This document shows positions 17,950-55,005 of a stretch of DNA of 64,000 nt, one piece after another (within the stretch, counting starts at the first letter, position 1; each line of letters starts with the position of its first letter). The notes under the pieces were generated by a model that ran no database searches, had not been told where the DNA came from, and saw only the letters and a program-made list of their open reading frames with translations. The translations under genes and the position numbers were made by a program. The stretch comes from Candidatus Aenigmatarchaeota archaeon (GTDB lineage Archaea; Aenigmatarchaeota; Aenigmatarchaeia; CG10238-14), in contig JAHLMN010000005.1 in assembly GCA_018920345.1 (NCBI GenBank), forward strand, positions 12,255 to 76,254. Reading direction: 5' to 3'.

Positions 17950-18170
17950 ATTTGTTTTGTCGAAATAAAATGCTTTTCTATTCGACACTTTTCTATTCGA
18001 CTTTTTGAAAAAACTTAGAATCGACAAAATAGACAATGCATTTTAAAAAGGCTTTTTTCTCCTTGTTTTTTTGCCTATCAAACATAGTTTTTGTTTCGAT
18101 TAAAAAGAAAATGTGTCGATTCGACTTTTCTTTTCTATATATTAGAAGGAGTTATATCAATCGACAATAT
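17950..18170. promoter_or_regulatory. Divergent intergenic region with at least 8 TCGAC-containing motifs, including a 15-bp tandem direct repeat CTTTTCTATTCGAC(A/T)
   Basis: gtcgaa (17960), cttttctattcgaca (17973-17987), cttttctattcgact (17988-18002), aatcgacaaaatagacaat (18019-18037), tttcgatt (18094), tgtcgattcgac (18113-18124), aatcgacaatattgtt (18159-18174). The pentamer is GC-rich in an AT-rich genome, so the enrichment is strong. Confidence 0.5.
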
Positions 18171-18211
18171 TGTTATACAATATTGGCCAATCTAAGAAGG
18201 AGGATATCCTC

Positions 18212-43000: not shown

Positions 43001-46000
43001 CGATGATTTGCAGTATGATAATGTTACATGCACATTATTTGTTTCAACAGATAATGGGTTAACATGGAAAAACAAAGGCAATTATACTGTTTATGGCGGT
43101 CGTGGCAAATGCATAGTCAATGTTTCTGATTTTGATTGTGGTGATATAGGAAATGACAATAGATATTTGTTCCAATTATATGACGGTACAAATTTAATAA
43201 ACACAACAAACAATACAAATCTAATAATAGAGCCAAACGATGTTGAAATAATATACATTTCTGGCAATAATACATTTGTCAACAGAAGTGGCAATCAATA
43301 TACAACATTTGTTGTACAAGTTCATGATCTAGATGCTAATACTTATCCAAAAGATGTAAACATGTCAGTATTTGTTACAGTCGACAAAACAAACTATTTA
43401 ATAAACTCAACACCTAGATCTGACATCAATGGTATGCTTTACTATAACTTTAATCCATCTTGTACTTTTAATGAATTAGGTATGCAATATTGGCTCATAG
43501 GTGCAGATAACAATGTTTGCTATAAGAGTGTTAACACAACTCAAAATTATACAGTCAATATAATAGGAGACATTTTAAACAGACTAACAACACCAAGTGG
43601 TCAAGACTTTTTAAGAGGAGAAGATAATATTACTTTCACTATAGAAACATCAGATGATTGTGCTGCACCTGTGGATAATGCAAATATTAATTTGACATTA
43701 ATAAGCGAATATGGAAATACATACAGTTGCGAACCAATAGATGAGTTTGGCGGAGGAATTTATTATTGCACTAAAAATACAAGTGGCATGAGAGCAAGAT
43801 GGTATAATGTAAGTGTAAACACGAGCAAAGAATTCTTTAACACAAATGTTTCTTTACATGTAAGACCATTTTTCATTAAAACCATGCCAATAGTGCAGAA
43901 TTTAACTATAACACCAGCACAAGATTGGGGTTGGGGTGAAAAATATATATTTACAGCAAATGTCACTGATGAAGATTTAGACACAGTTTACGTCAATCTA
44001 TATTATACACCAGTCGGTTTTGATGATTGGGTTCAAATAAATTCAACAACAATAACTTCACCATTCAATACAACTGTTACATTAACATATCAAGGATTTA
44101 CATGCTCTGATATAGATTACGAGCAAGAATTTGAATTTACTGTTTTAGACAATAGATCTTACTTGGTTAATAGTACAGTACGGGAGCCATGGAAGAAGAA
44201 ATTCAATTTAACAAAAGATGATGTTCAAATAATTTATGAAGCAGGAAATGGCGAAGAGGTATGGAGAAACGGTACTGACTCAAGAAGATTAAGCATAAGA
44301 GTATATGATACTGATAAAGGCAGTTATCCTGGCTCAGGCTACAACGGCATGTTCTGGGTAACGACAAATTATGCTCAATTTGATATAGGCAAAGCGACAA
44401 CAACAAACTCTTCAAGCTTTTTGAATTATTATTTCACTTCCGAAGCACCTCAGCCTGAGTGCGATTATTTAACAGGTGTGCAAAAATGGAAAGCTGGCAT
44501 ATATGATGATGCATGCTATAAAGATACTAACTCAACCAATTATACAATTACAATTAAATCAGAGTTAAGGCCACAAATAGATTATCCATATGGACAAGGT
44601 TTCATAAGACCAAATCCAGTTCCATTCATTGCAAGAATATATGATGATTGTGGTTTGGTTTCAGGGGCGACAACAACTTGGACAGCATATAATGGACCAA
44701 ACGAATATGGTTGCACCAATAAAACAGAAGCTAATGGCTGGTATAATTGTACATGGCCATCTGCTAACAGACCTTATGGATATTACAATCTTCAATTTGC
44801 TGCTACCAAAAACTATTATGCACCTAATAACACTTATAGAGCAAACGCATACTTCTTAGGCACTCTACCACAACTTTCTGATCCAAAGATACTCAACAAT
44901 CATTATTTAGGTGGATGGGGAGAAACTTATGAATTTTCTGTTAAGCTAACAGATTTTGACTTGAACACAAACAATGTAAGTGTTTGGAAGAGTTTTGACG
45001 CTCAAAATTGGACTCTAGTTGCTTCGCAAAATGTTTCTAATGCTGTTAATCAGCAAATAATCTTCCCAGTAAAATTCAACTGCAGTGACATGGGCTTTAA
45101 CTATTTCTACTTTACTTCTGTTGACCAGTTTGGCTATTCAACAAACACAACAATATTGAATTTCACTTTAGAAGCTGATAATGTCACTTTATCTATTGGT
45201 CTAATAAATACAACTGTTAGAAGAATAGGAGAACAACAAGCTTTGTTGAACTTTACAATTTATGATGATGATTATGGAAGATATGCACCAAATGCTTTAG
45301 GCAACATAAACATTACTTTAGATTATTCTAACTATTCTTATGTCTTCAATTGTACTACTAATGAAAGAGGTCAATGTTATATATATTATAATCCAAACTG
45401 CTCTTCTTTAGCTGGTGTACAAAGTTGGATAGGTAAAACAGTTGATAGCTGTTATCAAATAAAAGAAACTTCACCAACTAGCTTGGCTGTCATAGGCCAA
45501 TTAAACACATCTATTTTGAATCCTTACAATGGACAAATATTGAACAGAAATCAAAATGCTTCACTAAACACAATAATATTAGATGAATGCTTTAATGAAG
45601 TAAGTGGGGCAACAGCTTTATGGTATAATGAAACTTGGAGCAACATAGCTTCTGGTTACAATACTAATTGGATAATACCAACTTATTATGAGCTTGGTCC
45701 AGAAACAATTTATCTAAATGTAAGCAAAACATATTATGATCCAAACAGCAACAAAACAAATGTCTACATATATGGTTGGAGCGGCATTAGCATCTTAAAC
45801 CCACTTGATTCATCATTCTATTTAGCTGGAACATCAGTAAATGTTAAATGCAAAGTTATAGATCTAAACACAACAATGCCTTTACAATCATATATGGTCA
45901 AATTCTATAAGAATGGAACTTTAATGGACACACAACCAACTAATTCAGATGGCGAGGCATTTTGGTTATGGCAAACCATGACAGAAAATTATGGATGGTA

Positions 46001-49000
46001 TAACATTACATGCTCAATAGATGATAATACAGTTATGTATTACAATGCAAGTATTCCAAGAGCAACTTCTCTTGTTGAAATAAAGAGGCCTTTGATAATT
46101 CAATCAATAGATAAAAGTTCTCCATTTGTTTATAGAAATGATAGTTTTGTTCCAAATAATGTTAACATAACAGTAAGAATTAAAGATGCATTAATTGGAG
46201 ATGCAGAAAATGCAAATGTTACTTTCTATAATTCTACTGGTTTAATAGATTGGTGTTTGACAAATTCAACAGGTCAATGCTTTATAACATTTAATCCAGC
46301 TGATACAATAACACCAAACATTTATACAATTTATGTTAATGCAACTAAAGTAGGCTTACAAGACTCTGTTACAAATACAACAACAATAGAAGTGAAAGGA
46401 AAGCTTTTTGTCAACATATCTTCACCTTTAAACAATAGTTTCTGGGCAAGAACAGACAATATAGCTTTAATAGCTTCTGTTTATGATGAAGCTGGTCAGG
46501 AAACAACAGCAACAGTAAGATGGTTTAATGAAACAGCTCAAGTTGCCTCTGGCGAAAACAGCAATTGGTATTTAATAGAGCAAACAACAGGTAATCATAC
46601 ATTAACAGTAAATGCCACAAGAGATTATTATGATAAAGGTGAACAAACAATAATAATAACAATAAGCAGCTTGTCAGATGTTCAATGGATTTATCCAAAT
46701 GATGGCAGCATAATGCCATACCCAGATGCATTCAACACTTTATGTAGAGTAATAGATAGCAGCACAGGCACTCCAATACCAAATTACATGGTGCAATTCT
46801 GGTATAACTATACACCTGGTTATATTTTCAATGGTACATTGTATACAAATGCTTCTGGTATAGCAACAAATACATGGCAACCTCCACAAAAAGGTCAAGT
46901 TATGTTTAGATGCAATATAACAAATGATTATGAAAAATTATATACAGCAAACATAAAAGAGGCATTTGCACTAATTACAATAAGAGATATAAGACCACCA
47001 CAAATAAACAATATTTCTATTCAACCTTATGCAGGTTTAGAAGCCAATTTAAATTACACAAACATCTCAGCTGTTATAACAGATGATATAGCTGTATATG
47101 AAGCCTGGGCACAAATAACAATGCCTAACAGTACTATATTGAACTTAACAATGCCTAATAGTGGTAATACTTATAGTGTTTTGTATCTACCTCCAATAGG
47201 AGGAAATTATAGTGTAAGAATATATGCAAGAGATTATCCACCAGAAAGCAACTCCAACAACACATTTGCAGGAACATTTTATGTAAATGGCAAAACTAAT
47301 GGTATTATAACTCAACCTGATAATATACAAATAAATGGCATAACATGGACAAGCTCTGAATCAGCAGAATTAACAATCAATTTCACTAATATAGGCCCAG
47401 CAACTGCTTATGCTGTCAATATTTCATTCATTTCTGATCCATTAAATTCACTTATATTAAATGAAACCATTCATGAATGTGGCACAGTCTATAATCAAAG
47501 CTCTTGTATATTTGGTTTACTAGTCACAGTGCCAGCTGCTACACCACCTTCAGCTATCAAACTTATATCAAATGCAACTTGGCGCAATCCTGACTTGACA
47601 AAAAGTTTCACAACAGAAGATACTAATTTTGTTGTTATTTCAAACAAGATAATTGATATATTACAAGACAACATAACAGCTATTGCTCCTCATGACAAGC
47701 TTACTGATTTACCTGATATAACTGTTCAATCTTTAGGAAATGACATGATAACTGATATAAGCATAACAACAACAGGCGGCAACATATCAACATTATGTCC
47801 AGACTGCGAACTAATAATTGTTCCAAATGAATGGGGTCTACTTGAAGCAGGAGCAAGCTTTGTTTCTGATTTACGTATAAATGTGCCAAGAGCACAACCA
47901 CCAGGAACATACTGGACTTATATCAAGGCAGCATCAGTTGAAACATCGCCAGACTTGATGCCTTTGTATATTACAGTGCCGCTAAATACATCATGGTCAC
48001 GCTCTCCTGAAAACTTTGGCTTAATATTAGCTCCACCAAACACATCTGGTTATATAGGTGAAATAACAACAACAAGCTTTGCAAATATAAGATTAATATT
48101 AAATGCTTACAAACTACAGAACGGCTCACAACTTTTCAACATTTATCCATCTGCTTTCAGTCTTGACAATGGCGCTGTGAGAAACATCACTGTCACATAC
48201 AATATACCCTCATCTTTCATTTCTTCTCAAGGATTATATTATGCTCAAATAATTATAACAAATGAAACAGCAATGCCAAATGAATACAGAACAGAATTCT
48301 GGTTAAATGTTACAGATATACCTCCAATAATATCAAATGTATCTTTTGTGCCAACTGAGTTTGAAATGATTTATGAATCAACAAATATATCAGCAATTAT
48401 TAGAGATAATTTTGCAGTAAGCTCAGCTTTCCTAAATATAACTTTACCTAATAGCACTAGCTTTACTCAACCTATGAATAATACAGGCTCTTATTATTCA
48501 ACTATTTACACAAGCAACATACATGGCTATCATAATATAAGTATTTGTGCAATTGATACCCAAGGCTTACAGGGTTGTACAGAACCAACACCAATATTAG
48601 TTTCAGGTGAAACAACAATAAGAAATGTCTTTAACATAAGCAAAGCAGTCGTGCCTAACATCACTTTGTCAAATGGAAATGAATTTGCAATAACATTTAC
48701 AACAAATAACACAGGTTTATCAAGAGCATTTAATATTTCAGTAAATATAACAACACCTTCAAACATATCATCAAACATAAATTCAACTTTCTATTCATTG
48801 CTTTTAAAGAATCAATCATCTAGTCAAGTAGTTGAATTTAATGTTTCAGCTGCGACAAGACCAGGCATTTACAAAATTAATTTCACAAACAATTGGACAA
48901 ATTTAGATCAAACCATTTCCTCTTCCCTCGATCAGCTAGAAGTAGAAGTATTATCAAATCCAAGATTGAATACAACTGAAAACATTACAGTTTATGTACC

Positions 49001-52000
49001 AGATGGAACTACAAACAACGCTACTATGATATTGCAAGCATCAGGTAATGATGATGTCTACAACATAACATTCTCCTGTCTTGATGGTGTAGCTTGTCAA
49101 GACTTTAATGTTTCATTCTATCCAACATTCATAAACAGAATTAATCTAACTGATACAGATTTAGTAAACATTTCAGTTTCAGTGCCAAAACAATATATGA
49201 CAGGAAGATATAATGGAACAATACTAGTAAATGCAACAAACTTTTCCATGGTCGTGCCTCTATATGTAATAGTCCCAATGAACATTTCTTGGTCTCAAAC
49301 ACCTTTAGAGATTAGCAAGACAGTTTTAGGCGATACAAAAGGTGTATTTGGTGAAATAGAATTGCAAAACACAGGCAATGCACCTGTAATTCTAGAAATT
49401 CTCAAATCAGGAAATATTAGCAACTATATATCTTTATCTGAGAGCAGCATAACAATACCAATAGGTCAAACATATTTAATAAAAATAAACTATACAGTTC
49501 CTGTCATAAATCAAGAAAGCAACTTTACAGGTGAAATAATTATAAGAAATACAACAGCTGACCAACAAAAACAAACATCTGTTTCTCTATATGTATTGCC
49601 ATACTATGTAAACATAACAAAACCAACCGAAGTTGAACCTATTGTAAACATAGCATTTGGAGATGTAGTAACATCTTATGTCAATGTAACATATAGTCAA
49701 ACAATAACAGAAAATGTAACATTCTATTTAAGAATTGGAAACGAATCATTCTCACAAGCAATAGTGGTTGATTCATCTCAATTCTTACCTGACATGCAAT
49801 TATGGCAAATAAACTTCACTGCACCTTTATTACCTGAAAACAGAGCTTATGATTTAAATGTAACAGCTTACTATTCAACAAAGAATGTTACAAGAAGTGA
49901 TATAGAATATAAAGCAATAAACTATAGAGATTCTATACCACCAAATATAACATTAATAACGCCACTCAAAGTTCCAGCTGGTTATATAGCTATAATAGAT
50001 GCACTAATATATGAAGAAGGCAATCTAAAGAATGTTTCTGGTATAATAACATATCCAGATAATAGAACAGAGTATGTTAATTTTGCAAGATTAAAGAGAA
50101 CAAACAACACATATTATTATCAACACAATATAACTAATACAACTTTGCTTGGCGTTTACACAATAAATGCAACAACTTGTGACTTTTCAGGTAATTGTGC
50201 TAATGCCTCAGCAGAATTTAGCATATATCCAGCTGCATTATTCCATGGTTATTCAAAAGATTATGAAGCAGCTTCTGAGCCAGTACAATTTGTTAACTTT
50301 AGCTTATATCAACCTGGAGTAGAATTGCTTTTATTCAACATTACACCTAACATGCAAACAGGTTATTATTCTGCTTTAATAGATGCAAGATCATATGACT
50401 TGCAAGCTTCCATATTCAATTCTACTGTTTTAGCCAGAGATGTTGAAATTATACAAGATGTCTTCAATCCAATAATATTTGGTGATATACCATCAGAAAA
50501 AATAAGTCTTGGTGCATTAACAGGTTTGTATGTAGAATCTATATTGAATACAACTAACACAAGCATTAAGATAGATTATTCACCTTATATTAGCAAGGAA
50601 ATATGTAAGATGAATAATGATTGTAGACCAGCATTATTCTTTGAAGAACATCTTTCATTATTTAGATGCAACGCTTGGACAAGAAAGATTGGTTGCTCAG
50701 GTGGTTGGACAAGGCTAGATACAAAAATAAATACTACATTACACTTTGCTGAAGTTGAAGTTATAGGCAATATTTCAGGTGCTTATGCATTAGCTCCATA
50801 TATTTGTGGCGATGGCATATGTGATCATGGTTATGGAGAGTCACCGTTCACATGTCCAAGAGATTGTGAATTACCAAGGCCAGTACCTGTTCCACCAGCA
50901 GCAGGAGGTGGGGGTGCAGGTGGAGGCGGTGGTGGAGGTGCTGCAGGAGGAAGAGAAGTAAGCATATCTGTACCAGGATTGCCTTATTCAATAAAATCAA
51001 CTTTGTTATTCATCACAATAAAGCCAGGTGAGCAAGAAATACACTCTATTGAAATATCAAATAATGAAGACAAAGAGATAGAAGGCCAACTAAAAGTAGA
51101 AGGATTTGCTTGGGAAATGATAATGCTTGAAGAGCCAGTGTTTAAAGTGGCACCAAAAACTACCAAAGTAATAAAAGTTAAAGTCTTTGCCCTACCAACA
51201 ACTCAGCCTGGTATATATACAGCTGATCTAGTCACAACAATTAATGGCGAACAGCATAGAACACCAATAACAATAAAAGTTGAATATGGTCCAGAGCCAC
51301 TATTAGACGTAAAGATAGAAGCATTATCCAAATCAGTGAGACCAGGAGAAGAGGCAAAATTCCAAGTTACAGTGCTAAATATGGGTCAGACCGCGACAGT
51401 AGAAGATATAGTATTGAATTATACATTAAGGAATTTAAGAACAAACGAGATGATTTCTGTTGGGCAAGAAACAATAGCTGTAGAAGATGTTAATACATTC
51501 ATCAAATCCTTCCATATACCAGAAGATACACCAACTGATAGATATGTCATAGAAGTTACAGCAAGCTATTGGTATGGCAAAAAACAAGCTAGAGCAGCTG
51601 CAGCATTTGATGTTGTTTACTTGCCAGCACCATTGATAATATTGAAAGCTCTTGCTACAAGCTGGATCACATATTTAGTAGTCCTTATAATTGCGCCAGC
51701 TGCTGCAGTTGGCTATAGAGCTTACAGATATTATACAACTATGAAGAAGATTAAAGCCAAATACATATTCCCTGTTGATATAAAGAAGTTACCACAACCA
51801 GGACCAAACACAATATTAGTTGGTAAAGTTGCTGAAACAGATATAAATGCTTATACAGATGTCAACAAGCTTGTCATGCATAGCTTAGCAGCAGGAGGTA
51901 CTGGATCTGGTAAAACAGTATCGGCTATGGTTACAGCAGAAGAATTGCTAAAGAGAGATATACCAATAATTGTCTTTGACCCAACAGCTCAATGGACAGG

Positions 52001-52841
52001 CTTCATAAGGCCTTGTAAAGATGAAGAAATGTTTAAGCTATATCCACAATTTGGCCTGAAGAGAGAGGATGCAAGAGGATTCAAGACAAACATAATAATA
52101 GTTAAAGATCCTAACATGAAGCTAAACTTGAAAGAATATATGAAACCGGGTGAAATAACAGTATTTGTTATGAACAAACTTTCCATGGCTGAAATAGATA
52201 CACTAATAAGAGCATCTATACAAGAGATATTCGACATGAACTTGCCAGAATCAAAACAATTAAAGCTTTTAATGGTTTACGATGAAGTTCACAGATTATT
52301 GCCTAAATATGGAGGTAAAGGTGGTTTCGTAGCTCTAGAAAGAGGTGCAAGAGAATTCAGAAAGTGGGGTGTTGGCTTATATATGATATCACAAGTACTT
52401 ATGGACTTTAGAGGAGCAATTAGAGCTAACATTGGTACAGAAATACAAATGAGAACAAAGTACGAAGGTGATATCAATAGAGTAAAGACAAAGTACGGCG
52501 CTGATTATGCTGCTAGGATAACAAAACTTACTACTGGTACTGGATTGGTGCAAAATCCAGAATACAATGAAGGTAAACCATGGTTCGTTGCATTTAGACC
52601 ACTATTGCATGATACACACAGACTAACAGATGAAGAATTAGCTGAATATGATGCAACACAACAAAAGATTAAAGAAGCTGATGATAGAATTGCAAAACTA
52701 AAGGCAAGAAAGATAGATACTTATGATGTTGAGCTAGAGCTTAACATAGCTAAAGATAAGATGAAACAAGGAATGTTTAAGATGGCTCAAACATATCTAG
52801 AATCTGTTGATAGTAGACTAAAGGCATTAGAGAAGAGATAA
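19062..52841 (+). CDS. Giant (11,259 aa) membrane-anchored, heavily N-glycosylatable surface protein with C-terminal cytoplasmic FtsK/HerA-superfamily ATPase domain
   Basis: Single uninterrupted ORF. N-terminal TM segments. Extracellular tandem modules carry conserved GGWGE, QKWK, CYKD and WYN[IV]T motifs. CARDB-like domains near the C-terminus. TM at ATSWITYLVVLIIAPAAAVGY, followed by positively charged residues. Walker A GGTGSGKT, DEVH box, and a RGAREFRKWGVGLYMISQ motif typical of COG0433/DUF87 ATPases. Confidence 0.85.
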   Translation: MSNQKFNKSQVSLALAMPIFFLPILVILPLYLALSLLVLYIAFINLSKKSETGQSQLLASLIVLLITSTLVIATNSTITNNTITGMFTEVMPEEIEKTAQIEVWANTFIETSEENNLIKARLLMDNGSFVSGQEILSYFNDQVQNIQITDNDGYAYFDKNITKLEYKGNQSLYLNPSFIEINYTQTLTRQDFLTVFTDKQFYESNETVNVFGYVSINGSVEVEIIVEKDSQVYKTQTISAENGSYNYNFIVDFTEQGVYTIKVRSIGLINTTAFEYRLPKKLRIEATAFAENIGKTKLKSIIVNGSVFSGDTKIPALIKVKIYNVNGELVLQSQKQIVNNFFFNFTHLPKTYGKYYAEINAETELGNVSETIYFDVLKHLVLKPLIKQEKFNYELGEKIRFQVDAVDEDGNIYSDVNVSAFVVDPDGNVTEANVIADETLPGRFYVELDTEREFRPGVHKLKVRLNYISPNPGEVVVEEEVEFAVGLINVNTDKSIYLPGDKAKITIGVLNNEGKRAYDATVIMNIITPSGEIFTYNSYNGDFSTDEIDGSLALLYDVNETGNYSIDVLAYGSNFSVNYQTFFETRNYVDFDIQRKVKTLIDIGHPNTAEIKIKSNVNANNVTLIEKLPNSFLEITAYGARIERKENETWIIWSFNKLNENDEKTLKYSFTTPDVNPAIYLAGPLTVYYNDSFVFEESKPWTFIVVDVVYYFFKFMPYYYRTNNVTDSVQHIVFNSFDEYRDPVIMCRNHENYSLNVLLTDEADDDNGIIQQWELQIYDGSWKAITTNGVAGFYIMSGETNPVSGSGVGTTDTCTSNFGVAGGDKCEWGEHFRWNITINKTAPLGLTKIRVLPKTRTQGPMFNTNEFYAYIIDCQDINLVRPIKIFGPSGEPIDKISRGHIAKIVIPLANYNSSLKKANISIDIKDSTGNSVDWFIEEGKVQTVSIPGTLTRPNWSEKIVVYTVYVPDEVQATTYSIYVNITSDQVVVQHAKTFTVYTDEGGTSNDIVLFTSTPRKLGANCEDTGGQTTGCGTGHASVCADGDGQPCYKNFREIYVCNYGDYNLTVNITDFTAGSNVYFTTETDGPMAVPQPDYNSTGEVRWYNVKINTSSCFMAEIPYRPTDDTGEETFILQAEWIDPVTGESQMVTNKHISLISATTGTQSPTITTILNRTTVYPNEQLPLRVIAKLGGSEGFAAIDGAATHTVVHYVELYIPPGFERPTNFRVVDNNGATIRATSPDPGYPIGSPEEGWVVKFSPYSIGGTVIRFAAAATQSVGNINHYVDFVTTVLPENNITPGGKVFYTTYVGWMRQNKDYLFKTDRNVLSVLSPFIKTVRYYNTTINNEEKGFPSSNMCQPFSVKLQVFNKGNLPATNFNVTENKYNHSVTHWNDLQFSNFNPSANVYSSNGIIWGNNNINFIPTGKDNSLNYTYIITVPYQTNGTFVFKALTRNMTYIFYDKNYTSLISCGASLIVSEPIIKKGEITNPPIYAGDIFNISSTIYNDGPGNASNVIAIINYTANFDVRNFTNHNSNITYLGNIQSKESKVAHIDYTYTVNTTGVLPGTYTFCIIANATENATKVAACKDVTIQAPPATIELENPLIISKETGSSSGSWGYNFTFNISVRVSNSDTDVSICSYFSKTGNEPWIQVGECQNYPAPGQSIGQWQNFTYEFDPSCNDIGQIVFVKFNATNNAGTSNSTQTTFSITKDKIAFENLIGNNTETRRGKTATLLAIRTRDANGTLVTNLPLTFFVTLDGTIYDSGYSTTTNASAYANYYFQASCSPKYQVGLQKVKIVLANNECYQDNNTESYYNIYTNVTGDIILSFVRPDGSVNYTQEQEIPFLGAVTDDCNDPITATIKYFINQSSSSIECEDISQVGSNAFTCDLPTTINTPMGWYNTSMYANKLQHYNNYTNNLGNPGLFYLFPIKKLLQPSAYPTTEGWGYPNWNFSINVSSGDSENVLLASLYMAQYWPPTYPCPSNICLNQTPLECANCIGSVKYWYRNFTAYEQGIWYYQFKLDGTQTDQVISVTVEKDDTNITYGGEGNLTTVIKDVQPQYLSARVYDLDRQTYNVTSPSATVTFKLYNSNYPDGYIILGSALTNETGYARFLFNITNCYGFYEGTQLWTAEINSSEPYYKPSQMGNGTITIQLPGCQPQIDVEQILTPKEVFSGRNFTVNATITSWVASAENVYATIYLPAGWQVDQAIKSLGTVNVGEHVRISWNVNATTDGVENITVYVNSTNANNDVIYSNKIISYKPITSSIIETLPKIIQPSQSQIFSFLCEAGDYRIANITTNWNGTNTKAKLYSYNGTTWIDIGERYLNETKIEFIPILQHQINSNETGYCLIKIQNIGDNYINISNIQFSAYYNETIKIQDINTTVFGNQITGIEPNQKLNVTVKVANSGQGQTGILWLNITGPTGLVNYSSQNINIPNGISFFNINDIDTSTWQEGTYSIKAFVDYGNKTERIELLELRQIQARIHAYNWMCNSSTEDLSVDIYHPFNDDIQYNISLQVPSGWQYSPVYQLINASTKGNYTANFTITSGNTAEVALINASIVYNYPQEKSLQVTKQIISNSIAILEVIREMPKYVGNDKVFDAQLVIHNKGCAPTTGTTTVSEQISAGWIPANPFIKKNEYGDNIELISTQVDLIKNKVTWNLGQIGVNEYAVLTYQIKAPVDTAREGQFTWNVSWDGKSLRERDPYNVQTANYSNEAHLEFDLEALQQEAYPWVEPRSAQLNRNYEYALKVTNVGDKNATDWTITLYVPEACDVKAIKNSGSWNSTSRKISWSLPEIETYESTYLNFTLNCTIEGKKILIAEALKDERQQIAFTNDTSISCYGQECLIEQPFTFTKPVNARYETLSALNMLVNYDWSGFRNTIGEGKITFTDDLGNYYTLWQNYSHDSTSSSLWQNYTILENEKYVSPTRKIKIEGYADATDDALTNVTINKINYVWNVGKYFQEPQELFIKTKIYTYKPLLENATLYINGNSSRIIGGWGETFNFSVMLRDRFGRDVTVYAWHKKGAGEYSLIGSWTCYSCLEWNQANFSYDYIGSDISSWEFKFNATNADGTSTLNGYPYTVEADDINVDFAYPTYNMTVNRSGTSNFVILVYDRDNQTSPAYLMPGETDEGKGRIYISKFGSNTTFDLSPSLSANSTGHVVRQMSNIIPQWCLVSDYYLGQNYWKGGIEGAVTYKNNATGIYPFMLVGDLSNSYLTQPNNKNFTRGSTINLDGVIKDDCNDVKTDSARFGAEYILTHESTEYRITASLTSASFEIPLDAPLGWYNITMISFSEGIDNDKYWNGTYFKQNAFFLASIPQLNNVQVQPYPKGSWETKPFNFSVYITNIDNETVFARLWFKNQTDDWFLQNTTTCSNCDNYYFLTQHNFTCYNIGEWKAQFNATSATSFSNLTTTITFNITKSDISILHSSGNNTIVNRSDDEPANTRELSVQIFNLVTNKNETAISTSDVYTWVYDGSTYIEQLETANTSHYYFNFNPSCSYQVGKQKWKVNTTSSCYSTNTSEEFYIDIYGSLNNTLILPDGSTNYTQNDQILLLGQITDDCSQPVLNANVRFKLQSGSNIYYCPSSGYITNTTGNYYSCVWDSSGKPGGFYNITMESNKAYHNNGTDYLQNAFFLITPVQLISPQVSYPGDGSWGELHNFTVFVTHYAPANVCLLERTPTTQWQVTECKYVENPQNTFVNFTRYYTCDEYQASALRYFVFNASEPGVAATYSNTTEQSHVLVKNDITITYVYGNESFVNRNGANTTKFILFVNDTDRNQPAYYLLGASVKPQVWFRVHNATSYLVDGYNSTNTSGYVEYNFNPSCSYEAGKFKWQGYTSSDSCYKDYSAEEYNVTIIGDLVANVTYPDGITYFRNLELYIPINGTVIDECNLHYNENATVNFTAISVGFGTEYQCLPVDNAGTGKYNCTLNATTIEEGWYNVRMNATNVQYYNNATILASNKFRVIQQWVPPILENATVLPEQDWGWGENFTFIVNVSDLNAQDINVSLWLSPDNQTWQYISSQICYNCGSKKQLTFYYKGFNCDAIPKYYFKFNASDQYNKTEIAGIEFPITKNDVEVRYVDFAVGNNSVVNRNEYTMLRLRLYDTDNKSYLPANVNGRIFVTTNYVDFDLGNANITDEQGYLSYYFQPNCNYLAGVQKWKGGTYEDACYKDSNITDYLQTTIIGWLNNTIIEPNGDVYYSNQNVTIVTNVSDECFLPITDASVVFMLNHSSNYYQCLDVSSNNGWYNCTWNISNNPSGWYSIRMNSTRQYYNNATTYSEQSFFHQVDPQLKAAFVTPNSTWWGSTFAFKVNVTDDDDYVNVSLWIRCVGGNITPNGCSPDSEFSLANTTNVYDYINNQVMLTKKFADGVNIGNYEWFINASDNYGGFANTGIYTFNVTKRPVYLVYVSGNETNVSRIGANTTLVRVRLFRVGADGGNDEPLNGLSVNFWFTQDGSTWSNTPRSNTTGQSGPGYAEFAFNPSCPATDGGIDFFKTGRQWWNATFSSNTEPGIYYYANTSTNFTLYINSTLNVKIIKPDGEYYPVGTNIYTLANVSDECEYVSQASVQLSVSGESISCSNNTGDANGQYSCILLTSVLGTGDYNEEATATKNYYDSAYTFKPNAFKIRYSPQLSNQQVTPTTEGWGYNFTFNVSAQDSDPGDYLNISLWKSYGGEWIKVEQKNCDSCLSQQTLFFHPIFSCEDYINGPVVRFKFNATDSYGLKAETPNITLTFEKDDVLFTILQGSGATINRSDENDNNAYNFVVIVNDTDRRNVTVNSSEEPDQTITGYFVFSKEPISPTFDSGHSNTTVNGYLSYYFNPDCNYKTGLQYWKVNISGNTCYKDTELTEYQTFNIIGQLKTNLYLPQKYSEFNVTDNITFKFNTYSDCYLQGAEDNGNISVDTSSLRLNETFYCTPIQQELAGNYNCTWDSTGKPQGNYTVNITVEKLNYNFNTSYYIDWFYLKNRMPNVTEMNVTPYSSGWGDTYTYRAEIFDEENDTVTCSLYTNTTGQWVYKGSNTINTPGNCSITVNDFSCDEQGQASFMFEINDTFTRFNTSVVLGPIIAKDNVSVTHILGNNSYVNRSGDQYTTFILNITDTTKKVKAQNANTTIWITTDGSNYQSWFDLKSNETGHVIFKFNPNCSSPTYSLGKQYWLGGVRNDVCYNEANTTENFTVNILGDLQLFINQPKGEKYLRTNYPDGSYVIIKANISDDCLLPITNAQVNFTSEKGLTKKYCNPIYNEGDSNYNCTIDTTTYQAGAWNLTMNASLINYNYNTTTYVYQPNQKGYWVETKPVIEPYLPITPIPAGDGGWGEYWLFRTNVTDEDLDTLTLRLWINSTSEPETWTFKASNNSVSGINQTVFFNVTFTSTFANKHFKFKYNVSENVIDFIQNINETGNGTFYLDKDDTFVQYIEGNNTVVNRSAPISVSNFTMTVRLWDADKYDTTIGNRRIRFWMTTDNAENWVVVSPAALRTNGTGEQPSSAGWGYASNISHPGCNFAVGPQKWKAEIYNEDPYKSSNSSISFFTIIASQLQSKVISPKNKTILKGIEDLVIKGNVSDDCGLVANASVTITVIDSSGTVRGVCKPNDPFNPTLDESNGIYNCTFPASQIYSEDWPTGWYNVTINATKQYYNDSVTYVEQSSFRISTAPELSNAIVTSEEGSNVGGWGELWQFSVDIIDPDNDNSTVYLWLNLTGDWVLYNQTYWRNGIDPSTITFYNTFNCTGLADLGTKFFKFNASDNYGYKDEITNSFTLQPDDTEVYVTATNGQSINREGPNELELSAWILDIDRDYIPVGEGVNTRIRITTNASDPNSWSDYETQTNSSGYTKRIIDPDCTYSVGIQTWRAEVYNDVCYKTAYDQDTITVLGSIYNSLLAPDQYSSYPTGTPVAINYSTTSDCTNVRSDETPYINVTPTIELSLTGANWEQCSPITNNYGIYNCTWNSSYKQPGYWDIKLTSNKQYYNTKQTVYQDWFEIYNANPTNTSTPTVTPTIGGWGTVYNYSVQLLDTDGDPITCVLYTSTDDGNTWVKQGQQLIGSVGTCSFLVKNFNCNATYTDVGSDNWFKFEITDGYHTPFNISSEPGPIIEKNNITITLFAGNNSVVNRTGNDFTILRVFVNDTTKGWPVGNATSGNATIKFNITYNGISYLLEGSNTTYRGNVTYRFNPSCSYYVGDQKWIAYKQGEIGGDQCYNDASSEVFNLTITGNLINVIQKPSGEKYNRGEVNVTIRGNVTTDCPSLDGLISTALVNYTIIHVGTQNTYSCTEGTFTNEGNGYYNCSFDTTSKPTQWYNIRMNSSGFQYYTPNTTTKTNAFFISTIPNLTNPTTTPLSGGWGAPHTFSVYIKDDDNDVNNVSLWIRCVGGGCNPTNFWLAKTTLITASSSPQQVQFTKTDFTPADIGNWEYFFNASDGLNSANTSINTFTITKDTINLTLVAGNEAVINRSTTETATLRVKVFDVDRNVALSPGEPGTGYFYVTTDPNNPNSYVIDKTLTSIEGGSYLTDIFPTLARCTYGVGPQKWKVEFGSDAYQATNSSEFLINITTHEIILQIIGPNNQTFRRARDPIPLVAQANDDCGGLIGATTFFKAYPEYSWTTCNSPTDNLNGTYNCTLYSPETAGLTYYNLEFNATKQYYNSSSNAYKQDAFVLVTNPEIIAYTPVTSDTVYPNGWSEVWNFTASVRDIDQNVYNFEKLNISLWIDFGSGYQLVNSTICSATDNPNCASWKTITFLFRNFTCGDIGIKSYKWNVTDVWNYTNETTATLTVDKSDVIIEFVDQPSYIYRADTSTGKFVYRVYDTDKGQYVTNTSTNTMMWITTDGSTYDNGRFVQINSSGYAVYEFDPDCNYRYGMQKWIAGVYEDACYKNKNLSFTPQFEVRVQLQNNLLVPVYNSIYNVTDMILVRFNTTTECSAEGLIGNATTTISLQSPLGVWETCTPINNEYNGWYNCTWNSTHKKEGYWSIMLNSTKTPYFAQNSTVYSNWFWLENLNSSYDNITLTPTIGGWSRLYNYTIDIDDPEREDINCSLFISKDNQLTWEYKGSYLLQNGLGTCFVTVHDFTCEDIGKEIFYKWQVVNGEPANAYNTSAYKGPNITESLVQVQLSQGNNTFINRTFQTKPLIVRIFDIENQSYVYNANTSFWITYDYSNYLLVNKTQTDYNGYALYSFTPSCIYQVGTQNWKAGIEDDKCYSDVNSTDYLVHVNGTLFNTILQPSGQEFLRGDNITIKANVSSDCQNEVMNESVYLELTTVKDLQSLQCTPVLNENTGVYNCTFNTSSYAARWWNITAYSNKIGYNSNYTTKINAFWVETKPELNNPTVMPLGDGGWGETWIFTVNFTDEDLDPNTVRLWVNKSSGWSNANTTIVSGINQTITFVQVNLFTSSDYINSLNNLTKFYFRTQDEIIPTENDTAETPQINITLQKDDVYINHTYGNNTVVNRSGGSLFFRVRMWDTDRVPWDDLPSGSKGRFWFTKDGNTFVNTIDKFANSSGEIAHLQALDCSFQVGPQKWFAELYGNTPYKDTNSSIFNWTIVTVGLTANITDPDGIPRLRGIDDIVLRARVTDDCGGVPNATVIFHVPDENYDCTNVYYEGNGYYNCTIPAATTASWNTGWHDVTVDVSKQYYNGTFVEKTNAFYLATKPEILLTPPPAAIPEQDGGWGEDWLFTAITQDTDGDSYNVSLWFNLTGNWQLVDSVIVSGPQQVDFPGKTFSCDDIGERQFMFKVTDVWGYENNYTSPFTIYKDDTIIDYVAGAGTQVNREYDDIEPIIVQISDFDRDGIYVGSNVNGSFFITTDGSNYIQAAANKTDTSSLLSYYFNPNCTFNVGIQKWKAGTYNDRCYKDNIPDYGFTIEITGQLKNNLIKPNYGEIIAVGNLVNTTFQVLDECGFAVNDSNGKIEFGSPTNSFEQCLPITDQGNSIYNCTWNTSFHMGGYWDIRLNSSKQYYYSNSTLLNDWIYLLNTPPAYENLSVTPTSEGWGRNFSFSVDVDDLQYDNVTCTLFVSTDNGLTWKNKGNYTVYGGRGKCIVNVSDFDCGDIGNDNRYLFQLYDGTNLINTTNNTNLIIEPNDVEIIYISGNNTFVNRSGNQYTTFVVQVHDLDANTYPKDVNMSVFVTVDKTNYLINSTPRSDINGMLYYNFNPSCTFNELGMQYWLIGADNNVCYKSVNTTQNYTVNIIGDILNRLTTPSGQDFLRGEDNITFTIETSDDCAAPVDNANINLTLISEYGNTYSCEPIDEFGGGIYYCTKNTSGMRARWYNVSVNTSKEFFNTNVSLHVRPFFIKTMPIVQNLTITPAQDWGWGEKYIFTANVTDEDLDTVYVNLYYTPVGFDDWVQINSTTITSPFNTTVTLTYQGFTCSDIDYEQEFEFTVLDNRSYLVNSTVREPWKKKFNLTKDDVQIIYEAGNGEEVWRNGTDSRRLSIRVYDTDKGSYPGSGYNGMFWVTTNYAQFDIGKATTTNSSSFLNYYFTSEAPQPECDYLTGVQKWKAGIYDDACYKDTNSTNYTITIKSELRPQIDYPYGQGFIRPNPVPFIARIYDDCGLVSGATTTWTAYNGPNEYGCTNKTEANGWYNCTWPSANRPYGYYNLQFAATKNYYAPNNTYRANAYFLGTLPQLSDPKILNNHYLGGWGETYEFSVKLTDFDLNTNNVSVWKSFDAQNWTLVASQNVSNAVNQQIIFPVKFNCSDMGFNYFYFTSVDQFGYSTNTTILNFTLEADNVTLSIGLINTTVRRIGEQQALLNFTIYDDDYGRYAPNALGNINITLDYSNYSYVFNCTTNERGQCYIYYNPNCSSLAGVQSWIGKTVDSCYQIKETSPTSLAVIGQLNTSILNPYNGQILNRNQNASLNTIILDECFNEVSGATALWYNETWSNIASGYNTNWIIPTYYELGPETIYLNVSKTYYDPNSNKTNVYIYGWSGISILNPLDSSFYLAGTSVNVKCKVIDLNTTMPLQSYMVKFYKNGTLMDTQPTNSDGEAFWLWQTMTENYGWYNITCSIDDNTVMYYNASIPRATSLVEIKRPLIIQSIDKSSPFVYRNDSFVPNNVNITVRIKDALIGDAENANVTFYNSTGLIDWCLTNSTGQCFITFNPADTITPNIYTIYVNATKVGLQDSVTNTTTIEVKGKLFVNISSPLNNSFWARTDNIALIASVYDEAGQETTATVRWFNETAQVASGENSNWYLIEQTTGNHTLTVNATRDYYDKGEQTIIITISSLSDVQWIYPNDGSIMPYPDAFNTLCRVIDSSTGTPIPNYMVQFWYNYTPGYIFNGTLYTNASGIATNTWQPPQKGQVMFRCNITNDYEKLYTANIKEAFALITIRDIRPPQINNISIQPYAGLEANLNYTNISAVITDDIAVYEAWAQITMPNSTILNLTMPNSGNTYSVLYLPPIGGNYSVRIYARDYPPESNSNNTFAGTFYVNGKTNGIITQPDNIQINGITWTSSESAELTINFTNIGPATAYAVNISFISDPLNSLILNETIHECGTVYNQSSCIFGLLVTVPAATPPSAIKLISNATWRNPDLTKSFTTEDTNFVVISNKIIDILQDNITAIAPHDKLTDLPDITVQSLGNDMITDISITTTGGNISTLCPDCELIIVPNEWGLLEAGASFVSDLRINVPRAQPPGTYWTYIKAASVETSPDLMPLYITVPLNTSWSRSPENFGLILAPPNTSGYIGEITTTSFANIRLILNAYKLQNGSQLFNIYPSAFSLDNGAVRNITVTYNIPSSFISSQGLYYAQIIITNETAMPNEYRTEFWLNVTDIPPIISNVSFVPTEFEMIYESTNISAIIRDNFAVSSAFLNITLPNSTSFTQPMNNTGSYYSTIYTSNIHGYHNISICAIDTQGLQGCTEPTPILVSGETTIRNVFNISKAVVPNITLSNGNEFAITFTTNNTGLSRAFNISVNITTPSNISSNINSTFYSLLLKNQSSSQVVEFNVSAATRPGIYKINFTNNWTNLDQTISSSLDQLEVEVLSNPRLNTTENITVYVPDGTTNNATMILQASGNDDVYNITFSCLDGVACQDFNVSFYPTFINRINLTDTDLVNISVSVPKQYMTGRYNGTILVNATNFSMVVPLYVIVPMNISWSQTPLEISKTVLGDTKGVFGEIELQNTGNAPVILEILKSGNISNYISLSESSITIPIGQTYLIKINYTVPVINQESNFTGEIIIRNTTADQQKQTSVSLYVLPYYVNITKPTEVEPIVNIAFGDVVTSYVNVTYSQTITENVTFYLRIGNESFSQAIVVDSSQFLPDMQLWQINFTAPLLPENRAYDLNVTAYYSTKNVTRSDIEYKAINYRDSIPPNITLITPLKVPAGYIAIIDALIYEEGNLKNVSGIITYPDNRTEYVNFARLKRTNNTYYYQHNITNTTLLGVYTINATTCDFSGNCANASAEFSIYPAALFHGYSKDYEAASEPVQFVNFSLYQPGVELLLFNITPNMQTGYYSALIDARSYDLQASIFNSTVLARDVEIIQDVFNPIIFGDIPSEKISLGALTGLYVESILNTTNTSIKIDYSPYISKEICKMNNDCRPALFFEEHLSLFRCNAWTRKIGCSGGWTRLDTKINTTLHFAEVEVIGNISGAYALAPYICGDGICDHGYGESPFTCPRDCELPRPVPVPPAAGGGGAGGGGGGGAAGGREVSISVPGLPYSIKSTLLFITIKPGEQEIHSIEISNNEDKEIEGQLKVEGFAWEMIMLEEPVFKVAPKTTKVIKVKVFALPTTQPGIYTADLVTTINGEQHRTPITIKVEYGPEPLLDVKIEALSKSVRPGEEAKFQVTVLNMGQTATVEDIVLNYTLRNLRTNEMISVGQETIAVEDVNTFIKSFHIPEDTPTDRYVIEVTASYWYGKKQARAAAAFDVVYLPAPLIILKALATSWITYLVVLIIAPAAAVGYRAYRYYTTMKKIKAKYIFPVDIKKLPQPGPNTILVGKVAETDINAYTDVNKLVMHSLAAGGTGSGKTVSAMVTAEELLKRDIPIIVFDPTAQWTGFIRPCKDEEMFKLYPQFGLKREDARGFKTNIIIVKDPNMKLNLKEYMKPGEITVFVMNKLSMAEIDTLIRASIQEIFDMNLPESKQLKLLMVYDEVHRLLPKYGGKGGFVALERGAREFRKWGVGLYMISQVLMDFRGAIRANIGTEIQMRTKYEGDINRVKTKYGADYAARITKLTTGTGLVQNPEYNEGKPWFVAFRPLLHDTHRLTDEELAEYDATQQKIKEADDRIAKLKARKIDTYDVELELNIAKDKMKQGMFKMAQTYLESVDSRLKALEKR
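24400..45450 (+). repeat. Intragenic array of about 20 diverged tandem ~1-kb (~330-aa) coding modules
   Basis: The conserved QKWK-type motif recurs at about nt 29580, 30565, 31545, 32562, 33558, 34527, 35580, 36597, 37590, 38617, 39612, 40580, 41562, 42522, 43488, 44478 and 45422 (period 944-1053 nt). The GGWGE-type motif recurs with the same period. Repeats are protein-level, not identical DNA. Confidence 0.7.
51760..52838 (+). other. Cytoplasmic P-loop ATPase domain (FtsK/HerA superfamily, COG0433/DUF87-like) of the giant protein
   Basis: Walker A gca gga ggt act gga tct ggt aaa aca at 51891-51917. Walker B / DEAH-like VYDEVH at 52275-52292. ALERGAREFRKWGVGLYMISQVLMDFRGAIRANIGTEIQMR resembles the HerA/DUF87 arginine-finger region. 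Confidence 0.65.
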
Positions 52842-52887
52842 AACTAAAATTTAATTTTCAAAAACATAAATCATTTAAGGCGTTAAA

Positions 52888-54291
52888 ATGGCTGACATTA
52901 ACGATTTAATTTCACAAAAAAAAGAGATAGAAACTCTTCTAAAATCATTAGAAGATGAATATGGAAGAGCTCAAATAAGTGATGCTACTTATAATGAGAT
53001 AAAAAGCAAAAACATGGAAAAATTAAAAAAAATTCAAGAAGAAATAGACAAGCTAGGAGGAAGCGAGCAAGAATCTGTTGAGAAACAAACACCTGTTTCT
53101 GAAGTACAACCACCTCAAGCTGTATCTCAACCCATATCTTCTACAAATTTGGCTATACAGCCTAAAACGACTGCTGATTCAACAAAAATAAAATCTGAAA
53201 TAATGCTGGAAATAAATAAAAAAATAGATACAGAAATAAACAAGCTAAATATTGAGTTAGAAAAGATAAAGGCATTTTTAGATGCTCAAAAAGATTTAAG
53301 AACAGCTACAGATGAAAAATTGCAAAGATTAACAGAAAGTATAGGAGAGCTAAGATCAATGCTTTTCCAAAAAGAGAGTGAAATAGACAAGATGAATGTA
53401 AAGGTTCAAAGGATAGAAGAAGTTTTTAATGATGTAAAGCCAGAGCAATATACAAGAGAGTTGCAGAAGAGAGATAAAGAATTAGCAAATCAAAATTTGC
53501 GTTTAGAGAAGTTAGAAAAAATGAGCTATGATATGGTTAAAGATGTTAATGATATGAGAAATGTTTTTAAGGAAATAGGGAGTGTAGAAAATCTTGTTAA
53601 TGTAAGTAAAAGAATAAACGAAAAGTTCATAAAAATGGAAAATATGCTGAAAGATGTTGAAAAGATATCTGAAAAATTAGAAAAGCATTTTGTTGAGATA
53701 AACAAAAAATTAGAAGAGTTTGAAGAGTACAAAAACAAGCAATTACAAATAGATGGGTTGTCAAAAGATTTGTTAAAGGCAGTAGATGATATAAATATAA
53801 AAATTGGAAAGTTGGCAAGCGAAGAAGAAGTATTTAAACTTAAAGAAATGTTGAACGATTTTACCAAAGATTTAGAAGATGTTAAAAAATCTGTAAAATC
53901 TGGAATACCTTTTGTCGGACCTTTGCCAGAGGAAATACAAAAGTTACAAGAAGAAAAAGACAAAATAAAAACATTTTTAGATTCTATTGACGAGCAATAC
54001 AAATCAAGAGCTATAAAAGAGGAAGAATACAAGAGAATAAGAGAAGCAAACTTGCAAAAGTTAGCTGATATAGATGCTAAAATAAGGGAAAGTATAGAAA
54101 AGATAAAAGGAATACCTAATGTTCAGCCACAACCTATACCACAACCAGTTCAGCAGACACCTCAAATACAAGAGCAACCTCAGCAAGAAGATAAAGCTTC
54201 AAAATTGCTATCAGAATTAAAAGATTTGTACAAAAAAGGTTTGATAAGTGAAAAGGCATATCAAAAGACATCTAGATTACTTATCAAATAG
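52888..54291 (+). CDS. Long coiled-coil protein with three SHOCT-like motifs
   Basis: 467 aa, predominantly heptad-like charged repeats. SHOCT-like motifs: N-terminal LLKSLEDEYGRAQISDATYNEIKSKNMEKL, internal FLDSIDEQYKSRAIKEEEYKRIREANLQKL, C-terminal LLSELKDLYKKGLISEKAYQKTSRLL. Starts 46 nt after the giant gene on the same strand. Confidence 0.65.
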   Translation: MADINDLISQKKEIETLLKSLEDEYGRAQISDATYNEIKSKNMEKLKKIQEEIDKLGGSEQESVEKQTPVSEVQPPQAVSQPISSTNLAIQPKTTADSTKIKSEIMLEINKKIDTEINKLNIELEKIKAFLDAQKDLRTATDEKLQRLTESIGELRSMLFQKESEIDKMNVKVQRIEEVFNDVKPEQYTRELQKRDKELANQNLRLEKLEKMSYDMVKDVNDMRNVFKEIGSVENLVNVSKRINEKFIKMENMLKDVEKISEKLEKHFVEINKKLEEFEEYKNKQLQIDGLSKDLLKAVDDINIKIGKLASEEEVFKLKEMLNDFTKDLEDVKKSVKSGIPFVGPLPEEIQKLQEEKDKIKTFLDSIDEQYKSRAIKEEEYKRIREANLQKLADIDAKIRESIEKIKGIPNVQPQPIPQPVQQTPQIQEQPQQEDKASKLLSELKDLYKKGLISEKAYQKTSRLLIK

Positions 54292-54589: not shown

Positions 54590-54631
54590 AATTAAATAAA
54601 ATATTTTTTAGCTTAAATAATTAAAAAAGTC

Positions 54632-54904: not shown

Positions 54905-54917
54905 GTTTTTCACCTCC

Positions 54918-54963
54918 ATATTGAATATATATTCATAATTTATATTGAATATATATTCATAAT
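54918..54963. promoter_or_regulatory. Perfect 22-bp tandem direct repeat ATATTGAATATATATTCATAAT x2 (period 24) immediately upstream of the DUF5320/DUF134 operon
   Basis: Copies at 54918-54939 and 54942-54963, read directly from the sequence. Each contains a TATA-like ATATATAT core. Confidence 0.55.
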
Positions 54964-55005
54964 AGTATTTAAACTTATCGTTTTATTGATTCAAAATGTA
55001 TAAAA

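Follow-up and report, generated by a model that had tools for sequence, protein, structure and literature searches.

What is the function of a predicted helical protein of 467 amino acids (aa) whose gene lies directly behind that of a giant archaeal surface protein? The question is raised by a 64,000-nucleotide (nt) stretch of DNA from a Candidatus Aenigmatarchaeota archaeon (GenBank assembly GCA_018920345.1, contig JAHLMN010000005.1, forward-strand positions 12,255 to 76,254), which we call the window and which has a G+C content of ~30%. Within it, an open reading frame (ORF) of 11,259 aa (19062..52841), the giant gene, stops 46 nt before the ATG of the smaller gene, whose product we call the partner. 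A sequence-only reading of the window had placed a 467-aa ORF at 52888-54291, 46 nt after the giant gene, and we confirm its position, strand, and length. We propose, with a probability of about 0.55, that the partner is a cytoplasmic adaptor or scaffold subunit of the membrane-anchored HerA/DUF87-type ATPase of this SPEARE-like giant surface protein. Judged from sequence, the partner family is new and well delimited, and in DPANN archaea its members and the ATPase of SPEARE-like surface machines form a constant pair. The features with which the argument begins are the following, in window coordinates:

51636..51716, + strand: C-terminal transmembrane (TM) helix of the giant protein (aa ~10859-10885), found by hydropathy, conserved across loci, and followed by the basic stretch YRAYRYYTTMKKIKAK
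51771..52613, + strand: cytoplasmic HerA/DUF87-type (FtsK-HerA superfamily) P-loop ATPase domain of the giant protein, with Walker A AAGGTGSGKT and Walker B VYDEVH
52614..52838, + strand: conserved C-terminal extension of the giant protein (aa ~11185-11259), with invariant columns and the motif IDTYD.E.ELNI...K.....F.M...Y.E....R
52842..52887, + strand: spacer between the giant and partner genes, 46 nt, AT-rich, with AAGG 9-12 nt ahead of the ATG
52888..54291, + strand: partner gene, ATG start, 467 aa, stop codon included, predicted to encode a cytoplasmic all-alpha protein

The TM helix with its basic stretch, the ATPase, and the C-terminal extension together account for the last ~430 aa of the giant protein. 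A hydropathy scan of the entire giant protein identified TM-like segments at aa 21-39, 57-75, and 10859-10877. The ATPase domain exceeds the Pfam cut-offs for DUF87 (38.3 bits; cut-off 23.2) and HerA_C (30.7 bits; cut-off 22), and it matches HerA chains in the PDB at E 2e-7. The C-terminal extension, which is presumably helical, is a candidate docking site for the partner.

We scanned one genome per GTDB species with the ATPase tail, obtained 496 relatives, and examined the best 80 loci, which are mostly from Aenigmatarchaeota. A hidden Markov model (HMM) of the partner core, the central helical region described below, matched the same-strand ORF immediately downstream of the ATPase tail in 75 of these 80 species loci. 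At the five loci that lacked a core match, less than 350 nt of contig remained, and two of them (L050 and L065) already open a motif-bearing ORF. The order of ATPase tail followed by partner is kept in 75/75 informative species-level loci, which strongly supports the coupling to the ATPase tail suggested by the sequence-only reading. From the stop of the giant gene to the first ATG of the partner, the median distance is 34 nt; it is at most 60 nt in 53/75 loci, and the two genes overlap by 4 nt in nine. Since the gaps are mostly 0-60 nt or 4-nt overlaps, co-transcription, also put forward in that reading, is plausible, and the partner gene is, as far as such spacings indicate, often translationally coupled to the ATPase gene. 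The window partner is the first row of the alignments behind the core HMM and behind the motif HMM introduced below, so that its own matches to both are by construction; it carries the E150/G153-E154-x-R156 residues of the family and the family's position, 46 nt after the giant gene.

The pairing does not require gigantic size. Five partner homologs (29-80% identity) each immediately follow a giant ORF that runs off the end of its contig; these ORFs measure 3,000 to >11,000 aa, and their last 800 aa are 50-91% identical to those of the window giant. Genes beyond the partner vary among loci, while the ATPase-partner pair is kept. A short ATPase paralog of 722-728 aa consists of a signal peptide, a ~290-aa ectodomain, a TM segment, and the same ATPase (~55% identity). 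Only 0-2 nt behind its gene lies that of a partner-family member of 525-527 aa (core E 1e-55 to 1e-61). The order also holds in a metagenome-assembled genome (MAG) labeled Nanoarchaeota (932-aa partner, core E 1e-37) and in one labeled Micrarchaeota (L096; 286-aa partner, core E 5e-35, no hairpin motif). Because the pair persists with the short paralog and in the Nanoarchaeota and Micrarchaeota MAGs, the partner belongs to the ATPase module and not to the giant ectodomain; the constant unit, as defined by comparing sequences, is the TM-ATPase plus the partner core. The earlier reading had linked the partner to giant genes and had named the joint absence of a SHOCT match and of conserved synteny with such genes as grounds for abandoning it. 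Since synteny is conserved, it stands on that count, with the correction that the tie is to the ATPase module, as the 722-728-aa paralog keeps its partner.

The partner family is sizable. A word-indexed search returned 29 relatives, of which 14 are full-length with 57-100% identity, and a 100%-identical protein is recorded in a Candidatus Aenigmarchaeota MAG. By profile, 1,064 relatives were found at E<=1e-3, 786 at <=1e-10, and 338 at <=1e-30 among 1.84 billion cluster representatives. Long family members (up to 1,659 aa) differ by longer linkers and added motif copies only, and none of 174 family representatives is an ATPase-partner (Rosetta-stone) fusion. All Pfam and NCBIfam matches of the window partner and of 91 full-length family members were below threshold and were of the coiled-coil, SHOCT, GvpG, and CdvA types only. 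A PDB sequence search with the family profile yielded no match at E<0.01; SNAP-25 SNARE matches at E ~0.1 were judged to be composition effects. In the literature that we searched, we found no account of a partner gene beside HerA/DUF87 and giant genes in DPANN archaea or Aenigmarchaeota.

Database labels suggest one other identity, that of an SMC/Rad50-like chromosome segregation protein: JGI names one homolog (P0005) "chromosome segregation ATPase," and there are weak NCBIfam Rad50/SMC matches at E ~3e-6 (25 bits). However, these scores are 17-26 bits against cut-offs of 300-1087 (25 bits against at least 700 for Rad50/SMC) and cover coiled-coil stretches only. The 467-aa partner contains no P-loop, ATPase head, hinge, or zinc hook. 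The chance of such an identity is next to nil: a protein that lacks any ATPase head domain refutes it, and the JGI label reflects coiled-coil bias only.

To the N-terminal and C-terminal sides of its core, the partner carries hairpins and linkers. Its parts, as delimited by the motif HMM, family alignment, and an AlphaFold2 (AF2) model, are:

52915..53037, + strand: SHOCT-like hairpin copy 1 (aa 10-50), motif HMM 53 bits, AF2 helices 4-26 and 32-57
53059..53178, + strand: disordered linker 1 (aa 58-97), S/T/P/Q/E-rich, predicted local distance difference test score (pLDDT) <50
53179..53898, + strand: conserved helical core and family signature (aa 98-337, ~240 aa), four long helices
53314..53370, + strand: near-invariant exposed stripe, a candidate binding surface (aa 143-161), with E143, E150, G153, E154, R156, S157, and Q161
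53953..54075, + strand: SHOCT-like hairpin copy 2 (aa 356-396), motif HMM 46 bits, AF2 helices 348-372 and 378-406
54106..54192, + strand: disordered Pro/Gln-rich linker 2 (aa 407-435), pLDDT <50, indel-rich columns
54184..54288, + strand: SHOCT-like hairpin copy 3 (aa 433-467), motif HMM 26.5 bits, AF2 helices 436-449 and 455-466

The AF2 model, built from a 27-sequence alignment, is 77% helix with a pLDDT of 74 and a predicted template modeling score (pTM) of 0.23. The four long helices of the core span aa 98-182, 185-230, 233-308, and 313-337, and pLDDT falls below 50 at aa 58-98 and 408-434. A Pro/Gln-rich insert (GIPNVQPQPIPQPVQQTPQIQEQPQQ, aa 408-433) had been pointed out in the sequence-only reading; it is real and predicted to be disordered, and its length and sequence vary among homologs. 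The second disordered linker, at aa 58-97, had been missed. This linker shows the lowest conservation and occupancy in an alignment of 76 sequences, in which both linkers are the least conserved regions of the partner. The protein had also been described as almost entirely heptad-type charged repeats. High helicity and charge (K/R/D/E make up 38% of residues) agree with that description, but its extent was overstated: when the hydrophobic contrast of heptad positions a and d was measured in 28-residue windows, 183 of the 467 residues exceeded the 99th percentile of shuffles (shuffle mean 4.2 residues), in passing windows at aa 2-31, 142-186, 238-281, and 310-373. Other than the three motif copies, the partner contains no sequence repeats. 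As modeled, the partner is soluble, elongated, and largely alpha-helical, with its hairpins tethered on flexible linkers. A hydropathy scan revealed neither a TM segment nor a signal peptide. Since the partner has no TM segment and a TM helix with a basic stretch precedes the ATPase, a cytoplasmic location beneath the membrane, as originally supposed, fits.

Conservation singles out one face of the core. Across the 76 sequences, E154 is 100% conserved, E150 and R156 are 99% conserved, P185 is 96% conserved, and E125 is 93% conserved, followed by E143, G153, and S157. The stripe residues occupy heptad positions b, c, e, or f and never a or d, in a register that is well defined from aa 140 to 186. 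Because these near-invariant residues lie on the exposed heptad face, they suggest a conserved binding surface rather than a packing requirement.

We characterized the hairpins with an HMM of 41 positions seeded on the three partner segments. This motif HMM detected 178 copies in 75 of 76 partners, one to three in each, and had no matches in shuffled family sequences (n=760). Among 174 core-bearing family representatives, the copy number is zero in one protein, one in 16, two in 68, three in 88, and four in a single protein; one copy, to which copy 2 of the window partner corresponds, almost always lies ~20 aa beyond the core. The three window copies align without gaps on L.D.Y....I....Y, with the residue after I being S in copies 1 and 3 and K in copy 2. 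The family consensus is EKEDIETLLSSLEEEYRKGKISEEEYEEIKKKNLKKLKEIE, in which the segment EYRKGKISEEEY holds a conserved Gly and Glu. Copy 3 (LKDLYKKGLISEKAY), the C-terminal and most SHOCT-like copy, carries both as G451 and E455. Copy 1 has Asp in place of the Glu and a Gly that comes two positions early (YGRAQIS), and copy 2 lacks the Gly (YKSRAIKEEEY).

To our knowledge, no function has been established for the SHOCT domain, although its hairpins are widespread in prokaryotes. SHOCT is a ~30-aa unit of two amphipathic helices connected by a short turn, with no indels, a strongly conserved Gly in the turn, and a Glu after it, and it sits no more than ~50 residues from the C-terminus in 89% of members (PMC3581485). 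The partner motif has the same two-helix, indel-free layout, as seen in the AF2 hairpins and the gap-free alignment of the three copies; only copy 3 is C-terminal, copy 1 being N-terminal and copy 2 internal. The sequence-only reading had recognized three segments with the SHOCT pattern. Three related segments do occupy the N-terminus, middle, and C-terminus, but the literal pattern L..L...G.I....Y...K....L matches nowhere in the partner (copy 3 satisfies 6/8 fixed positions), and membership in SHOCT did not hold up, as all matches to both Pfam models fell below their gathering scores. For SHOCT (PF09851; gathering score 27 bits), the whole partner gave E 0.15 and 12.3 bits and copy 3 alone E 0.0017 and 18.5 bits, while copy 1 scanned singly gave no match. 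For SHOCT_2 (PF20612; gathering score 24 bits), we obtained E 0.0041 and 17.7 bits, with the best stretch at aa 374-391; the family motif consensus likewise scored 17.7 bits, and copy 3 alone gave E 0.017.

Scanning 150 motif copies singly against Pfam (E<=0.1) widened this picture. GvpG matched 53 copies, SHOCT 27, SHOCT_2 16, the CdvA coiled-coil 13, and YqgQ 8, with best single-copy E values of 1.6e-5 for SHOCT and 4.7e-5 for the CdvA coiled-coil. When the same 150 copies were reversed, all five families were absent among the 25 families listed, the top one of which had at most nine matches. Since the matches depend on direction and are missing from the reversed controls, the resemblance is sequence-specific and points to the SHOCT-type hairpin group. 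On these alignments, the motif is SHOCT-like, with formal SHOCT membership not established. What it has in common with SHOCT, SHOCT_2, and the C-terminal half of GvpG (PF05120) is a helix-turn-helix hairpin, ~30-40 aa long, that has hydrophobic positions and a turn Gly followed by an I-[ST]-x-E-x-[YF]-type stretch, is often C-terminal, and tolerates no indels. Unlike SHOCT, the partner motif is longer (41 positions, with an N..KL..I extension), lacks the canonical Gly position in copies 1 and 2, and occurs up to three times per protein, the N-terminus included. The best PDB match of the motif profile is to residues 846-870 of 8c8g (SKKYFLDSLEEAYNNGSISAESYYK, E 0.006), a Weissella toxin of botulinum-like type, where the SHOCT-like turn probably occurs independently.

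The CdvA matches bear on another explanation, in which the partner would be an autonomous cytoskeletal filament that polymerizes through its hairpins and coiled coil under the membrane, as CdvA and crescentin do, and its adjacency to the ATPase would reflect shared regulation only. In addition to the 13 of 150 copies that match the CdvA coiled-coil model when read forward and none when reversed, the motif profile aligns weakly (E 0.11) to residues 91-112 and 150-166 of S. islandicus CdvA. These are two LE.LY...EIP..Y-like stretches of the three-helix coiled-coil (PF18822; PDB 9s9g) that resemble the partner motif, and six CdvA residues whose mutation abolishes polymerization lie in or beside them (PMC12818579). 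The weak alignment suggests that the CdvA domain itself may contain SHOCT-like elements. Generic coiled-coil fold matches also include crescentin and lamin. However, every CdvA similarity is below significance: the PDB match is seen with the motif profile only, and the CdvA coiled-coil model gives E 3.1 on the whole partner. The partner further differs from CdvA in gene context and in lacking both the PRC barrel, which had no match in any scan, and the ESCRT-III-binding (E3B) peptide. In many loci, translation of the partner is strictly coupled to that of the ATPase; like the exposed invariant stripe, this points to a specific heterologous binding partner, and we regard a free-standing filament as quite unlikely.

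The same motif is found on proteins encoded near the partner in other genomes. It lies at the extreme C-terminus, past a TM segment and basic stretch, of MG2/immunoglobulin (Ig)-type surface proteins of 1,300-1,500 aa (L092, L079, and L005/L006). An MG2-type gene is downstream of the partner in 41/75 loci, and all three of the complete ones end in the motif. In the MG2-type proteins encoded after the partner at L092 (5282-9223), L079 (9229-13227), and L005 (3749-7984), the cytoplasmic tail is one SHOCT-like hairpin. A TM-anchored surface protein of 443 aa with no Pfam match (L089, 8787-10118) also has a single SHOCT-like hairpin as its tail, a surface protein at L088 has the motif near its C-terminus, and L008 has a weak copy. 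The short cassettes (L093, 4522-10066; L094, 8001-13553) encode, in order, the 722-728-aa ATPase protein, a partner-family protein, a single-pass membrane protein of 306-340 aa whose C-terminal tail is a SHOCT-like motif, and a ParA/MinD-like ATPase. Upstream in these cassettes are several small TM or signal-peptide proteins and a large surface protein (Beta_helix/NosD Pfam matches in L094). Across the 80 loci, a ParA/MinD-like gene directly follows the partner in 14. At L088 (5378-6736), such an ATPase (AAA_31 and CbiA above threshold) has two SHOCT-like motifs in its C-terminal extension.

Tentatively, these occurrences can be read as a modular code for cytoplasmic docking in Aenigmarchaeota and their DPANN relatives, in which the SHOCT-like hairpin would be the module and the partner a multivalent hub, wiring the HerA-type translocase, the tails of single-pass surface proteins, and a ParA/MinD ATPase into one host-contact or transport machine. 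The ParA/MinD genes also allow a different explanation. McdB and PomX/PomY are coiled-coil and disordered adaptors of positioning ATPases, and by analogy the partner could be the cargo adaptor of a ParA/MinD-type ATPase that places or spaces the giant surface machine and does not act on the HerA-type ATPase. The 14 loci with a directly adjacent ParA/MinD-like gene, its place two genes downstream in the short cassettes, the paired motifs of the L088 ATPase, and the joining of a coiled coil with disordered linkers in the partner would all fit. Such a positioning role is nevertheless unlikely. Most loci have no ParA/MinD gene immediately behind the partner, and none was seen in the 64-kb window, but the HerA-type ATPase adjoins the partner in every case. 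Moreover, the most conserved region of the partner is its core, not the motif that it has in common with a ParA/MinD protein.

SPEARE-type giant surface proteins are said to have been described in Nanohaloarchaeota by Hamm in 2019, and we know of no account of how their cytoplasmic ATPase end is organized. According to the giant-protein section of PMC10266531, the nanohaloarchaeal SPEARE giants (SVXNc_0300, 9,409 aa; BNXNv_0298) contain a signal peptide, ~75 Ig-like domains, a TM segment, a cytosolic VirB4/TraG-like ATPase, and a terminal coiled coil, and they are proposed there to form a type-IV-secretion-like "straw" into the host. The window giant similarly consists of an N-terminal membrane/secretion segment, thousands of residues of Ig-like repeats, one TM segment, a cytosolic FtsK-HerA/VirB4-TraG-like ATPase, and a short C-terminal extension. 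Since it shares this architecture (11,259 aa; DUF87 and HerA_C above cut-offs), it is a system of a known kind, the likeness being one of architecture and not of sequence orthology. The two differ at the C-terminal end: in Nanohaloarchaeota, as far as the same section describes it, the giant gene is followed by that of another VirB4/TraG ATPase and the giant protein has the coiled coil at its tip, whereas the window contains a separate conserved coiled-coil gene. Neither a separate coiled-coil partner gene nor a shared SHOCT-like motif is mentioned in the giant-protein section of PMC10266531 or in the literature searched.

Could the partner instead be cargo that the FtsK/HerA/VirB4-like ATPase exports, as a substrate or an effector? 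Type VII secretion ATPases have helical-hairpin substrates, and the partner likewise combines helical hairpins with disordered linkers. The ATPase is a member of a translocase superfamily, with a further match to T4SS-DNA_transf (24.8 bits; cut-off 20.1), and a secretion role is proposed for the homologous nanohaloarchaeal architecture (PMC10266531, giant-protein section). On the other side, hundreds of lineages keep the core, its invariant residues, and the one-to-one pairing of the genes, which is typical of a machine subunit and not of an effector. The same motif also occurs in non-exported membrane proteins, on their cytoplasmic tails, and no known export signal was seen in the partner. 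Export of the partner is very improbable.

We therefore return, having set out these alternatives, to a cytoplasmic adaptor or scaffold subunit of the ATPase, for which we infer both binding and oligomerization. In this model, the core would dock on the ATPase ring or on its conserved C-terminal extension, most likely through the exposed stripe E143/E150/G153-E154-x-R156-S157/Q161. The tethered hairpins would serve as docking plugs and bind multivalently to like motifs in further partner molecules, in the cytoplasmic tails of single-pass surface proteins encoded nearby, and, in some genomes, in a ParA/MinD-type ATPase. Through these contacts, the partner would bring the parts of a host-contact or transport machine together beneath the membrane. 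Coiled-coil proteins that anchor, scaffold, or regulate a hexameric P-loop ATPase include FliH/FliJ of type III systems and the ArlX/FlaX ring of the crenarchaeal archaellum. The partner resembles these in being a soluble or membrane-proximal coiled-coil protein encoded beside a hexameric P-loop ATPase; it differs in that no sequence or fold relationship was detected and in that the ATPase here is of the HerA/FtsK class and covalently joined to a surface protein.

Several observations weigh against this proposal. The motif HMM found no SHOCT-like motif in the ATPase tail of the giant. The core of the L096 partner occurs without the motif, which indicates that the hairpins are dispensable in some lineages. 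There is no other motif HMM match in the 64-kb window, where both the MG2-type gene and the ParA/MinD gene are absent; with no motif-bearing neighbor, a hub role in this organism would rest on partner-partner contacts or on unlinked genes. AF2 pTM values are low (0.23-0.30), and fold searches were uninformative. Finally, the sole published oligomerization test of a SHOCT domain was negative, which argues against assuming simple self-association (PMC3581485).

The giant transcription unit may also include a gene for a membrane-bound regulator:

18170..19069, + strand: upstream gene, 299 aa, overlapping the giant start by 8 nt and encoding a winged helix-turn-helix (HTH), a TM segment, and an ectodomain

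This ORF has its winged HTH at aa 17-57 (HTH_11, E 4e-7) and a TM segment at aa 90-108, followed by an S/T/N-rich stretch and an Ig-like C-terminal part. This layout and the overlap with the giant gene suggest a possible one-component regulator, bound to the membrane and encoded at the head of the operon. In the short-ATPase cassette of L094, positions 5351-5569 encode a 72-aa HTH protein similar in sequence to the 299-aa ORF. Within the giant itself, a Gly/Ala run (PVPPAAGGGGAGGGGGGGAAGG, window ~50200-50270) lies ~480 aa before the C-terminal TM segment, between most of the ectodomain and its final extracellular domains, and could act as a flexible hinge.

At the other end, the partner is the last + strand gene in the window. 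An archaeal TATA-like sequence (AAATTTAAT) in the 46-nt spacer is indistinguishable from chance at 30% GC. No terminator-like hairpin was found in 52000-55000; these promoter and terminator scans are of bacterial type and uninformative for an archaeon. Convergent DUF134 and DUF5320 genes follow (54284-54919, - strand), and the DUF134 gene overlaps the last 8 nt of the partner gene. Both are kept in the close relative L001 (11399-12242), where a 77-aa EncFtn-like gene that is missing from the window lies between them.

DPANN archaea are tiny symbionts whose presumed way of life is attachment to host cells, and giant SPEARE-type surface proteins are prime candidates for the apparatus of attachment or exchange. 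The partner, present wherever the contig ran past the ATPase gene, is a second defined component of this machine. If it were only a passive structural rod, the result would still be a useful annotation, namely, a new family of ~1,000 sequence clusters with a defined genomic signature. The motif common to the partner, the surface-protein tails, and a ParA/MinD ATPase provides a testable wiring diagram and a biological context in which the function of a SHOCT-type hairpin could be determined. If the docking code is true, it would give a SHOCT-type domain its first concrete function and its first defined set of binding partners.

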